This document shows, piece by piece, positions 15,272 to 18,875 of a stretch of DNA of 28,329 nt. Both the position numbers and the translations under genes were made by a program. The notes under the pieces were generated by a model. It saw only the letters and a list, made by a program, of their open reading frames with translations. It ran no database searches and was not told the origin of the DNA. Each line of letters opens with the position of its first letter. The first letter of the stretch is position 1. The DNA is from a virus (lineage: Duplodnaviria > Heunggongvirae > Uroviricota > Caudoviricetes), in IMG/VR virus record IMGVR_UViG_2778261175_000004, one strand, 5' to 3'.

Positions 15272-16069
15272 TTACTCTCTGGAAGCTTTTCTTATCTCTC
15301 TTGGTGTTATATTAAAACGATTATGAAATCTTTCAGTAAAACGAGAAGGACACTTATAACCATTTTCTCTGGCAATCTCGCTTATAGGTTTTACCGTCGT
15401 TTGTATAGCAGACAACGCATTATTTAACCTCACATCGTCCAGTATACTTTGGAAACTTACCCCCTCGCTTGCTAGACGGCGATGTAATGTAGAAACAGAA
15501 ATGTAGAGATATCGAGCAACCTTGTTTGCTGTCCATTTTGTGCCGGGTTCGGATAGCAGCAGGTTATAACAACGACTTATCAATGATTGTTTACTATATG
15601 ATAAAAGTAAATGATTAACATGATTCACTCCTAACGAAAGTAGAACGCCCATTGCTAAGTGCTCCTGAATTTTAGTTGAGAAGCCTCGGGAAACAGATGT
15701 TTTTAGTTGCTCCCAACAATATATTAACTCAGGATTCTGAGGTAAAAAGAAACTTGTTTTGTTACGTATTTGATCAGTTACCGTATAAAGTTTTTGGAAA
15801 CTCTCAATTAAATCAATGGGTAAGTAAAGCATTTCTGCAAGATAAAGCCCTGCTTCAGGATAATTCTCAATATAAAATTCATAACCACAAGGAAATAATA
15901 TTATTTGATTATTATCAACAGTTAAAGTATGCGTCTCCCAATTGATAACTTTCTTTCCCTGACGGATACGACACAAAGCTGGCATAAGAGGCTTAACCCT
16001 ATGAATCTCATGATGTTTATGCATCCGTATTTCTTCGATCTTTAAGTTAGTCTTACCTCTTGCCAGCAT
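15272..16069 (-). CDS. ybcM: AraC-family transcriptional regulator YbcM-like
   Basis: 265 aa; C-terminal AraC helix-turn-helix (...[42 protein letters not shown]...). Matches DLP12 YbcM in position and length. Confidence 0.8.
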
Positions 16070-16078
16070 ACTCTCACC

Positions 16079-16630
16079 CTACTTTATCTCATAAACTGGT
16101 GTTATCTCAGCGGTTGCGATTTTATTAGCATTAAGCATATAACCAACTAACGCTCCGCTGGAGTTAGAATCTACAGGAATCTTTTCAGTTTTTAGAGCCC
16201 ATACTTTAAACTGGTAATGATGTGGTTTATCTCCTTTAGGAGGACACGCGCCACCAAACCCAGCATAGCCAAAATCATTTCGGCCTTGAACAGCACCAGT
16301 CGGCAGTTTTGTTCCATCACGTCTCCCTGCATCAACGGGCAAATATGTTATTGTTGCTGGAATATTAACAACAGTCCAATGCCACCAACCACTGCCTGTA
16401 GGTGCATCTGGATCATATACAGTTACGGCAAAGCTTTTGGTACCTTCAGGAACACCAGACCAGGTTAATGAGGGCGATGTATTACCACCTTCACACCCAA
16501 ATCCAGAAAAGACATGAGACGTTGTAAGTTGCTCTCCTGTTTTTATTTCATTACTAGTGACCTGAAATGCTGCAGCCTGCGCAGAAAATGTTATGAATGC
16601 CAATACAGTTGAAACGATAAGTGTTTTCAT
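16079..16630 (-). CDS. ybcL: Periplasmic phosphatidylethanolamine-binding protein (PEBP / Raf kinase inhibitor-like) YbcL-like
   Basis: 183 aa with signal peptide MKTLIVSTVLAFITFSAQA; PEBP motifs (...YDPDAPTGSGWWHW...HHYQFKVWAL...). Confidence 0.85.
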   Translation of the reverse strand: MKTLIVSTVLAFITFSAQAAAFQVTSNEIKTGEQLTTSHVFSGFGCEGGNTSPSLTWSGVPEGTKSFAVTVYDPDAPTGSGWWHWTVVNIPATITYLPVDAGRRDGTKLPTGAVQGRNDFGYAGFGGACPPKGDKPHHYQFKVWALKTEKIPVDSNSSGALVGYMLNANKIATAEITPVYEIK

Positions 16631-16846
16631 AAAAACCTCTTTGTTATGACCTATCGTTATTTTATTTGATATTCCTTTATCTCATTATGCATAAAGGCGC
16701 AATTTTTATGCAAAAGCAATCACAATTGTACCCCCAACCCAATTATTTGCCACAATATACACAAAGCACATTGATACTATCTAAAAACTCTGCTTTATTA
16801 TTAGTAATACCTACGAAAGTCGGTGTTATTTTTTAACCTATCATTC

Positions 16847-16896
16847 AAAATACGTGACATACACCATTTTGCTCATAATAATTTGTCACGTATTTT
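16847..16896. repeat. Perfect 13-bp inverted repeat AAAATACGTGACA / TGTCACGTATTTT with a 24-bp spacer, in the ybcK-ybcL intergenic region
   Basis: Direct reading: 16847-16859 and 16884-16896 are exact reverse complements. Confidence 0.9.
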
Positions 16897-17094
16897 CAGT
16901 ATTTGAATCTGCGACCAAGAGTTCTCACCTGACAAATGATTAAGATTGTATAGCTCATTTACTACCCCAATACAGCCGTACAAAACTCGCTTGTGGGAGC
17001 AAACAAAGTAATTACCCATTAAGTTTCGTCAAAGATAATTAATTCTGTCTTGCACTTTATCACCATAGCATAACTTAAAATCCGAGATCATTAT

Positions 17095-18621
17095 TTAGAA
17101 ATAAATCTCACCATCAACCATATATTTGAGAGCACTTATCGCCTGCTGGGCGGATATTACTTTCATTAAAGGATAGTGTTTAAAAACAATGCCATTCATA
17201 AAATAAATATCACAGGTTTTATTATCCGTATTAATTATGATTTTTTCGAATGTTTTATAGGCAAGTGTACGGCATAACTCTCGTCCATTTTTACTGGTTA
17301 AGTCAATAGCATAAAAATCACTGAATGAATTTACACCTTTACTCTTCAAAGTTTTCAATGATACCGAAGCCCTTCGTAATTCCTTATCTAATAGTCTTAT
17401 TTTCTCTGCTATAGCGGTAACTTCAGGCGCGACAGACAATGCAACGATTAAATTATTAATTTTCATCTGAAGCTCAATAATTTTTAACTCTAAAGTTTCA
17501 TTAGCATCTTTCTTGTTTTCAACTGGTTGAATTTTGCTACAATTAAAAAGCAATTCATTAATGATATTATAATCAACCAAATCTCTTTTTATTGATGGCC
17601 TGTCACATCGATGTAATCTTCTCATCGGACAAACATAATAGCCATGCAAACTTCCAGATACCGCATGAACAATCATGGTATTACCACAAGCCTCACACTT
17701 CATAACTGTTCGAAGTAGATTTATTAGCATAGGATTCTTGCTACTATTGCTAATACCAAAAGGTGCCAACCGAATTTCCTGTACAGCGTAAAACAAATCA
17801 TCTGATATGACTCTGGGATAATAGCCAGCGATTTCACTTATCCCTTTCCCTCTTGCACGATATGAAGGTACGCATATACCTATCAGAGCTTTATTCGCTA
17901 ATAATTTTTCAATTACAGAAGGTCCCCATGCACTTTCTTTTCCTGAGAAATTCTTTACAGCATGATCATTTAAATACTTGGCTATTGCATTCAATGAGCG
18001 CCTTTCCATCCTGAGTTTAAAAATTAGCTCAATAGTTTTCACCCTGTCGGGGTCTGGAACAAAAGCCGTTCTTTTGTCATCTAAGGAGAGCCATCTCGGA
18101 CAAGACGCCGTCATAATCGTACCTGATTCCAGTGCATCCTGCCGTTTTTTCTTCCATGATAATTTAACCCGACTTGACTTTATCTCGCTTTCTTCATTTG
18201 CCCTTTGTGCTATAAGTATGGCTTTTATTAATGAATATGGCTCATTCAAAGAGTCAATATTATAGACTGTATTGTCGCAAAGAGTTATAACATCAATACC
18301 GTGATTCAAAATCAATTTCAGACGTTCAATCGCTTCACCGACTTTTTCTCTTGAAAGTCTGTCCAGACTTTCAACTAACAATGTAGTTCCTGGCAATATA
18401 TAACCATGCTCTATAGCATCTAAAAATTCCGAAAAAGCTCCTGATTGTGCATGCTTTCCTTTGAATGCACTTAATCCTAAATCTTCATATGTTATGGTAT
18501 CAAGATAATAATCACTATTTACCTTTAACCATTCAGCAATAAGTCTTCTCTGTCGGTTTAATGAGTCACCAGACATCTGACCTGGTGATGAAAATCGCAT
18601 ATATGCTATGGCTTTTTTCAT
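17095..18621 (-). CDS. ybcK: Large serine recombinase (resolvase/invertase-type N-terminal catalytic domain plus large C-terminal domain), YbcK-like
   Basis: 508 aa. N-terminus MKKAIAYMRFSSPGQMSGDSLNRQRR... has the serine-recombinase catalytic motif (Y-x-R-x-S-S). C-terminal Cys cluster (CEACGNTMIVH...YYVCPMRRLHRC) is typical of large serine recombinases. Confidence 0.85.
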   Translation of the reverse strand: MKKAIAYMRFSSPGQMSGDSLNRQRRLIAEWLKVNSDYYLDTITYEDLGLSAFKGKHAQSGAFSEFLDAIEHGYILPGTTLLVESLDRLSREKVGEAIERLKLILNHGIDVITLCDNTVYNIDSLNEPYSLIKAILIAQRANEESEIKSSRVKLSWKKKRQDALESGTIMTASCPRWLSLDDKRTAFVPDPDRVKTIELIFKLRMERRSLNAIAKYLNDHAVKNFSGKESAWGPSVIEKLLANKALIGICVPSYRARGKGISEIAGYYPRVISDDLFYAVQEIRLAPFGISNSSKNPMLINLLRTVMKCEACGNTMIVHAVSGSLHGYYVCPMRRLHRCDRPSIKRDLVDYNIINELLFNCSKIQPVENKKDANETLELKIIELQMKINNLIVALSVAPEVTAIAEKIRLLDKELRRASVSLKTLKSKGVNSFSDFYAIDLTSKNGRELCRTLAYKTFEKIIINTDNKTCDIYFMNGIVFKHYPLMKVISAQQAISALKYMVDGEIYF

Positions 18622-18800
18622 GGTGACACCTGCTAACGTATGCTTTTATAAACCTTAGTGGTGGGATATAATTTTTGTTTAATTTTTATTTAAAAAGACA
18701 ATTAAGGTCACATTATCTTGAATATACAACAATAATCGTATTGCAATTTTCTTACGCCATAATCTTGAAAGCACAAAAGAATACATAAAAAATAAAGACA

Positions 18801-18845
18801 TTAACAAAAAGCATAAAACGAGGCTCATATAAATATAAGAGCCTC
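18801..18845 (-). terminator. Putative terminator downstream of emrE
   Basis: Stem GAGGCTC / GAGCCTC (18820-18826 / 18839-18845) with a 12-nt AT loop, followed on the minus strand by GTTTTATGCTTTTTG. The long loop makes this only moderately convincing. Confidence 0.35.
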
Positions 18846-18875
18846 CATATTTTAGTCGTTTAGAAACAAATTATT

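Follow-up and report, generated by a model that had tools for sequence, protein, structure and literature searches.

The window, the whole 28,329-nt stretch of viral DNA analyzed here, is a DLP12-type lambdoid prophage of Escherichia coli whose minus strand carries, in order, ren, emrE, ylcJ, ybcK, ybcL, ybcM, and ybcN. The original prediction drew attention to a perfect 13-bp inverted repeat with a 24-bp spacer (here, the dyad) between a serine recombinase gene and a PEBP gene, the latter followed by a gene for an AraC family regulator. All three neighbors are what they were taken to be, and a repeat search recovered the dyad to the base, with 13 of 13 arm positions complementary:

17095-18621, minus strand: ybcK, a large serine recombinase of 508 amino acids (Pfam PF00239, PF07508, and PF13408)
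16079-16630, minus strand: ybcL, PEBP (open reading frame [ORF])
15272-16069, minus strand: ybcM, AraC family (ORF)
16847..16859, no strand: left arm of the dyad, AAAATACGTGACA (repeat search and sequence)
16860..16883, no strand: spacer of the dyad, TACACCATTTTGCTCATAATAATT, 24 bp and asymmetric (sequence)
16884..16896, no strand: right arm of the dyad, TGTCACGTATTTT (repeat search)

The dyad spans 50 bp in total, is centered at 16871/16872, and is flanked by TCATTC and CAGTAT. Its stem core is bracketed by AAAA and UUUU, and the spacer itself is not symmetric (a count by eye gives matches at 3 of 12 positions). The surrounding ybcK-ybcL intergenic region measures 464 bp (16631-17094) rather than the 465 bp first reported and matches that of several E. 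coli isolates, strain 2452 among them, at 100% identity and that of K-12 at 98.9%. In K-12 coordinates (U00096.2), ybcK maps to 568,125-569,651 and the dyad to 569,850-569,899, and U00096.3 positions are 777 higher; the mapping was checked by the ylcJ coordinates in PMC6001520 and by a PhoB motif.

For statistical comparison, we considered perfect inverted repeats of at least 13 nt with a spacer of at most 60 nt, of which the dyad is the sole example in the window. A comparable repeat arose in 6 of 5,000 dinucleotide shuffles of the 464-nt ybcK-ybcL region and in 7 cases when the whole window was shuffled 300 times, and extrapolation from the latter gives approximately four such dyads per 5-Mb E. 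coli genome by chance. The claim that the dyad is unlikely to be a chance product thus stands locally but not genome-wide, and the statistics alone are no proof of function. Extra copies of the arms were not found in the window beyond the chance level (11 matches at up to three mismatches versus 9.2 expected). One second long perfect inverted repeat, of 11 nt with a 2-nt spacer, lies inside ybcK at 18351-18374; there are no others in the window.

The genes around the dyad also occur in a different arrangement. In 2,628 of 5,426 complete E. coli genomes, emrE, ybcL, and ybcM form a chromosomal island with a 168-bp emrE-ybcL spacer; the island adjoins fliE and is without ybcK (examples are loci L002, L056, and L057). 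Comparing this island with the window by blastn yielded two collinear blocks (16400-16785 and 18869/18874-19227), which indicates that 16786-18865 is a clean insertion that replaced only 4 to 11 bp. The insertion and its parts are as follows:

16786..18865, minus strand: insertion of 2,080 bp comprising ylcJ, ybcK, and segment X (blastn against the chromosomal island)
16786..~17019, minus strand: segment X, an orphan of ~234 bp that holds the dyad (absent from the chromosomal island and from phages 4A7 and Turner)
16873..17019, minus strand: ORF of 48 codons that fills X and has its stop in the dyad spacer

Counted from the ybcL-proximal end, the dyad begins 61 bp into the insertion. We found no target duplication, terminal repeats, or second insertion context for the 2,080-bp segment, which therefore shows no sign of current mobility. 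When the three junctions of the locus and the dyad were compared for shared terminal repeats, inverted or direct, just short AT-rich matches at the chance level emerged; the 10-mer ACAAATTATT, common to the emrE-side junction and the dyad, is one such chance-level match. At the emrE-proximal end, directly after emrE, a separate stem-loop (GAGGCTC-[12 nt]-GAGCCTC, followed by a U-rich run) occupies 18820-18845 on the minus strand, where it overlaps the beginning of ylcJ, a small ORF. This is likely the emrE terminator, missed by our terminator scan because of its 12-nt loop.

Segment X forms the tail of the insertion, bounded by position 16786 and by a breakpoint at ~17020. Distant blastn searches of E. 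coli genomes, plasmids, and phages returned no diverged relatives of X. The 48-codon ORF is probably not a gene: it has no homologues among 5.8 billion proteins and, by eye, no Shine-Dalgarno sequence before it. Phages 4A7 and Turner encode YbcK proteins that are 97.6% and 99.8% identical, respectively, to that of the window; both depart from the window ~75 nt after the ybcK stop codon and continue into other cargo without the dyad. At least two unrelated tails therefore follow ybcK, namely, X plus ybcLM in 675 genomes and, in ~750 genomes, a tail common to the two phages (L013, 4012-4400; L055, 4512-4960), beyond which the cargo again differs (an alpha/beta hydrolase or unknown ORFs). The breakpoint at ~17020 is thus a sharp mosaic joint that closely follows the recombinase gene. 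In one IMG/VR prophage contig (L033, ~10745 onward), what appears by eye to be an inserted IS1 element cuts X ~33 nt to the right of the dyad, at the equivalent of window position ~16929.

Across the complete genomes, ybcK was present in 1,425, and X with the dyad was present in 675, always as a single copy and in the same context; the dyad, X, and ybcK are all absent from the 2,628-genome chromosomal ybcLM island. Close relatives that carry the same gene and lack the dyad thus exist for both neighboring genes, and neither gene needs it. The copies that we compared, from the 675 E. coli genomes, 40 IMG/VR contigs matching the dyad pattern, and 7 metagenome contigs, contain essentially the same 50 bp (one more flank-matched IMG/VR locus ends before the dyad). 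The dyad is identical in 672 of the 675 genomes. Among 42 gap-free aligned sequences (10 haplotypes), the 414 flanking bases have 12 segregating sites and the dyad has none, against 1.45 expected (P[0] = 0.23). The conservation of the dyad is therefore uninformative, with no excess over its flanks, and the near identity of all copies leaves no covariation among them. Three genomes differ at one position; in the one of these that we examined, strain LR-28 (L179), a C>T change at 16887 breaks the right arm with no compensating change, so that the DNA is no longer symmetric and the sense RNA hairpin loses a G-C pair.

These distributions bear directly on the protein partners proposed for the dyad. 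The attP sites of serine integrases such as those of Bxb1, phiC31, and A118 are ~50 bp long, with symmetry that is strongest at the outer flanks. The dyad is similar to the attP sites of these large serine recombinases (Bxb1, phiC31, and the A118/LI integrase) in its length, in its outer symmetry, and in its location beside a recombinase gene, and YbcK has the three large-serine-recombinase domains and a YMRFSSPGQ catalytic motif that is intact by eye. On such a model, the dyad would be an attP-like 50-bp YbcK site, with the zinc-ribbon domains of a dimer binding the outer 13-bp arms, but the inner 12 + 12 bp, the supposed contact of the recombinase domains, are symmetric at only 3 of 12 positions. 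Nor does the dyad travel with ybcK (675 versus 1,425 genomes): 4A7 and Turner keep a nearly identical YbcK without it, and recombinase homologues with 41 to 61% identity (Pantoea, Duffyella, and Atlantibacter; L003 to L006 and L009) lack a comparable dyad. The mosaic junctions at ~16786, ~17020, and ~18865 do not coincide with the dyad center, the window has no second site or attB-like partner, each genome has one copy, and an intact attP is not expected inside an integrated element. The suggestion that the dyad is a recombination site for YbcK is thus disfavored by the genome counts, the two phages, the asymmetric inner 24 bp, and the missing partner, and we consider it quite improbable. As guides to comparable dyads or to the ends of the element, neither the homologue loci nor a possible second copy in a Pantoea plasmid was informative. 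A more ambitious version would make the dyad the cognate site of a YbcK that serves as a cargo-exchange platform in lambdoid phages, a serine-recombinase analogue of an integron. We regard this as the most far-fetched of the ideas considered here; if true, ybcLM, the alpha/beta hydrolase, or the Turner ORFs would be alternative cargo downstream of ybcK, and X with the dyad would represent one docking-site allele.

The second candidate partner is the AraC family regulator YbcM. RhaS/RhaR operators consist of inverted half-sites in a 17 + 16 + 17 arrangement with a 50-bp span. The dyad matches this half-site geometry in its overall span and, like the RhaS/RhaR and araO2 sites, lies upstream of an operon that encodes an AraC family autoregulator, since YbcM autoregulates the ybcLM operon (PMC8464067). 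The dyad could on these grounds be an operator for YbcM (as a distal looping site or as RhaS-type sites) or for another host or phage transcription factor. Published in vivo data, however, place YbcM elsewhere: ChIP-exo detected one very strong site at 570,015-570,048 in U00096.2, with a signal-to-noise ratio of 357 (PMC8464067). The mapped sites around the dyad are as follows:

16698-16731, minus strand: YbcM footprint by ChIP-exo, spanning -46 to -79 relative to the start of ybcL transcription (PMC8464067, mapped coordinates)
16652-16664, minus strand: ybcL transcription start at 16652 with the -10 box TAAAAT at 16664..16659 (available part of the Cappable-seq data, and sequence)
17601-17618, no strand: PhoB ChIP-seq motif TGTCACATCGATGTAATC, inside ybcK (PMC10294691)

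The YbcM footprint belongs to the ybcL promoter and is 116 bp away from the dyad. The window haplotype differs from K-12 by two single-nucleotide polymorphisms (16704 and 16707) inside this footprint. The ybcL start itself was mapped to U00096.2 position 570,094 by Cappable-seq (available part of PMC4782308), its promoter has a weak -35 element, and the dyad lies at -195 to -244 of this start. In the same part of that data set, no sense-strand start was recorded between 568,538 and 570,094. An RpoD SELEX signal is present in the ybcK-ybcL spacer, with a second promoter assigned to GTGGCA-17-TACAAT, which corresponds to window positions 16753-16725, and the region is bound by H-NS (PMC3946193).

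A role as a YbcM site is therefore contradicted both by the ChIP-exo peak, which is found only at 16698-16731, and by the ybcLM loci of 2,628 genomes, which do without the dyad. For other factors the outlook is similar, as 0 of the 34 factors of PMC8464067 have a site at 5698xx-5699xx, and the spacing of the CRP-like half-sites, 28 bp, is wrong. We judge an operator function to be very improbable. PhoB was considered and rejected as a further candidate: its peak at 569,907 (U00096.3; PMC10294691) falls inside ybcK and not on the dyad, and it belongs to the intragenic PhoB sites described as "transcriptionally inert" (PMC10294691).

Two further origins are a relic of another element, whether the paired ends of a decayed miniature transposon or a scar left by recombination, and the core of a promoter reading antisense. 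That X is foreign to both flanks is compatible with a relic, and the RpoD holoenzyme SELEX signal in the spacer is compatible with a promoter, for which one sequence match lies within the dyad:

16854..16882, plus strand: sigma-70-like GTGACA-17-AATAAT in the dyad, antisense to ybcK (consensus match only)

This match scores 10 of 12, but matches of this kind occur at chance frequency in the AT-rich region (4 versus 3.5 expected and 17 versus 16 expected), and the SELEX promoter was assigned to 16753-16725 instead. As for a relic, the dyad has one copy per genome, with no hits in plasmids or other phages, which makes a repeat element unlikely; it shows no target duplication or further terminal repeats, and the mosaic junctions are ~61 and ~125 bp away, outside the dyad, which also speaks against the remnant of a recombination site that was once suggested. 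Either origin seems improbable to us. Even when all protein-site and relic readings are pooled, they remain unlikely, and a protein-partner role is poorly supported.

Of the roles first suggested, only that of a transcript-end hairpin for ybcK survives: it is plausible by position and fold, although the hairpin is non-canonical as a terminator. The minus-strand RNA, the sense strand for both ybcK and ybcL, has a folding energy of -18.7 kcal/mol (z = -2.7) and forms the 13-bp stem plus a weak, G-U-rich inner helix of 6 bp, with an internal loop and a 7-nt apical loop. The plus-strand RNA folds at -14.9 kcal/mol (z = -3.05), so that the sense strand is the better folder, and the value for single-stranded DNA is -9.9 kcal/mol (z = -4.8). 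Locally, the hairpin dominates the fold, and the 13-bp stem is kept in the centroid fold of the whole 355-nt ybcK 3′ region. The stem is AU-rich, with G-C pairs at 4 of 13 positions. Its last four positions are UUUU, followed by GAAUGAU on the minus strand and by CAGUAUUUG on the plus strand.

The position of the dyad, 199 nt after the ybcK stop codon and ~195 nt before the ybcL start, is where a boundary between transcription units would be expected. In other versions of the recombinase gene, the first strong stem-loop occurs 65 to 350 nt downstream; phage 4A7 has AGCCCGCA/TGCGGGCT there, and Atlantibacter has, by eye, CCCTCCC/GGGAGGG. These stem-loops are conventional terminator hairpins in the equivalent position. 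The dyad shares with intrinsic and bidirectional terminators, including those of lambdoid "moron" cassettes, a stem-loop at the end of a transcription unit, a stem core preceded by an A-run and followed by a U-run, and a location between independently promoted prophage cargo genes. It differs from intrinsic terminators in its AU-rich stem, in its 24-nt loop (3 to 8 nt is usual), and in having its U's inside the stem with no U-tract next to it. The terminator scan, a consensus scan, did not call the dyad hairpin and found no canonical minus-strand terminator either in the ybcK-ybcL spacer or from the emrE stop codon to within ybcM. Rfam matches at E values of up to 10 were noise only.

Stable stem-loops without U-runs are known to define and protect the 3′ ends of Rho-terminated E. 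coli transcripts (Dar and Sorek 2018; PMC6061677). Rho acts on the ybcK unit, at the start of ybcK (PMC4150792), and a bicyclomycin-sensitive 3′ end lies at 568,940 in this unit (available part of PMC7815308). Like the stem-loops of PMC6061677, the dyad hairpin lacks a U-tract and is located downstream of a Rho-sensitive gene. Unlike them, it is found in a sense transcript that is G-rich rather than C-rich (the plus strand of the ybcK-ybcL spacer has 97 C's and 54 G's), which leaves no rut-like region after the hairpin. No Term-seq 3′ end at 5706xx (U00096.3) is present in the available tables of Adams et al. 2021 (PMC7815308); this is weak negative evidence, because ybcK is almost silent, with only ~30 reads. 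The locus also goes unmentioned in SMRT-Cappable-seq.

Since the distributions and the ChIP-exo data contradict the protein partners, we tentatively prefer, at somewhat less than even confidence, the view that the dyad is a stem-loop that ends transcripts running in the ybcK direction, as a weak terminator or as a block to exonucleases. On this view, a single 2.08-kb insertion placed X, along with ylcJ-ybcK, between the emrE and ybcL genes of a DLP12-type prophage, and the dyad is a lineage-specific, hairpin-forming palindrome in X that is the cognate site of neither neighboring protein. Its activity would be passive and exerted at the RNA level. Transcripts coming from emrE or ybcK toward ybcL are predicted to fold into the A4/U4-bracketed 13-bp stem, with the weak inner helix added, and this stem may act as a weak, non-canonical factor-independent terminator, as a block to 3′-5′ exonucleases, or as both. 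The hairpin would thereby separate the poorly expressed ybcK unit from ybcLM, which has its own YbcM-activated promoter ~200 bp further along. We infer that read-through transcription crosses the region and that the hairpin ends or stabilizes the resulting RNA. Several observations fit this proposal less well: an RNA hairpin does not need perfect DNA symmetry, the sole variant seen, in LR-28, is uncompensated, and the dyad is missing from half of the ybcK carriers and from every chromosomal ybcLM locus.

Alternatively, the dyad may have no function, which we consider nearly as likely. It would then be a chance palindrome or a mutational by-product (template switching or quasi-palindrome correction) in AT-rich, H-NS-bound, horizontally acquired filler at a mosaic joint, and its apparent conservation would reflect the clonality of the whole segment. 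Consistent with this view are the approximately four chance dyads expected per genome, the orphan status of X, the dispensability of the dyad for both neighboring gene families, the lack of excess conservation (P = 0.23), the uncompensated arm mutation that LR-28 carries in nature, and the H-NS binding of the region (PMC3946193). In addition, no binding site, start, or 3′ end is reported at the dyad in the available parts of the data sets examined. Symmetry that is perfect, beyond mere pairing, suits a recent copying event, and the products of quasi-palindrome template switching likewise have perfect arms within otherwise unconstrained DNA of a single lineage; in the case of the dyad, however, no outgroup X displays the premutation state. 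The absence of function is harder to reconcile with a dyad that is locally improbable (6 of 5,000 spacer shuffles) and that stands at a plausible transcription-unit boundary, where a 13-bp stem affects any RNA that crosses it, whether selected or not.

The likeliest identity of the dyad is therefore an ordinary hairpin at a transcript end or a palindrome without function, and not a site for a regulator or a recombinase. By itself it is of little importance, yet its analysis removes two tempting but wrong annotations, a YbcM operator and a YbcK att site, from a well-studied K-12 locus. The analysis also mapped the 2.08-kb ybcK insertion and the alternative tails of ybcK and located the real YbcM site and the ybcL promoter relative to the dyad, and these results are the more useful ones. 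If the hairpin does end transcripts, it would add another non-canonical, long-loop insulator between prophage cargo genes.

The wider pattern scan of IMG/VR and metagenome contigs gave, among the matches listed, the same allele plus unrelated palindromes that have the 9-nt core in common with it, and a metagenome search in which the spacer between the arm motifs could vary gave, again among the matches listed, unrelated palindrome families only. Some of these are distinctive in their own right, and all are unrelated to the E. coli dyad (L103, 126-263; L099, 2263-2621; L161; L166; and L072). In one family, GGGCGC-TACGTGACA and TGTCACGTA-GCGCCC are separated by 16 to 25 nt, and a recurrent triple-motif region reads GTTAAC TACGTGACA AAA TGTCACGTA GTGGCAAAAATA TGTCACGTA. 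Environmental metagenome contigs also contain a tandem 19-nt palindrome, TGTCACGTA-A/T-TACGTGACA, whose copies are separated by variable spacers of 26 to 29 nt, giving the array a CRISPR-like look.
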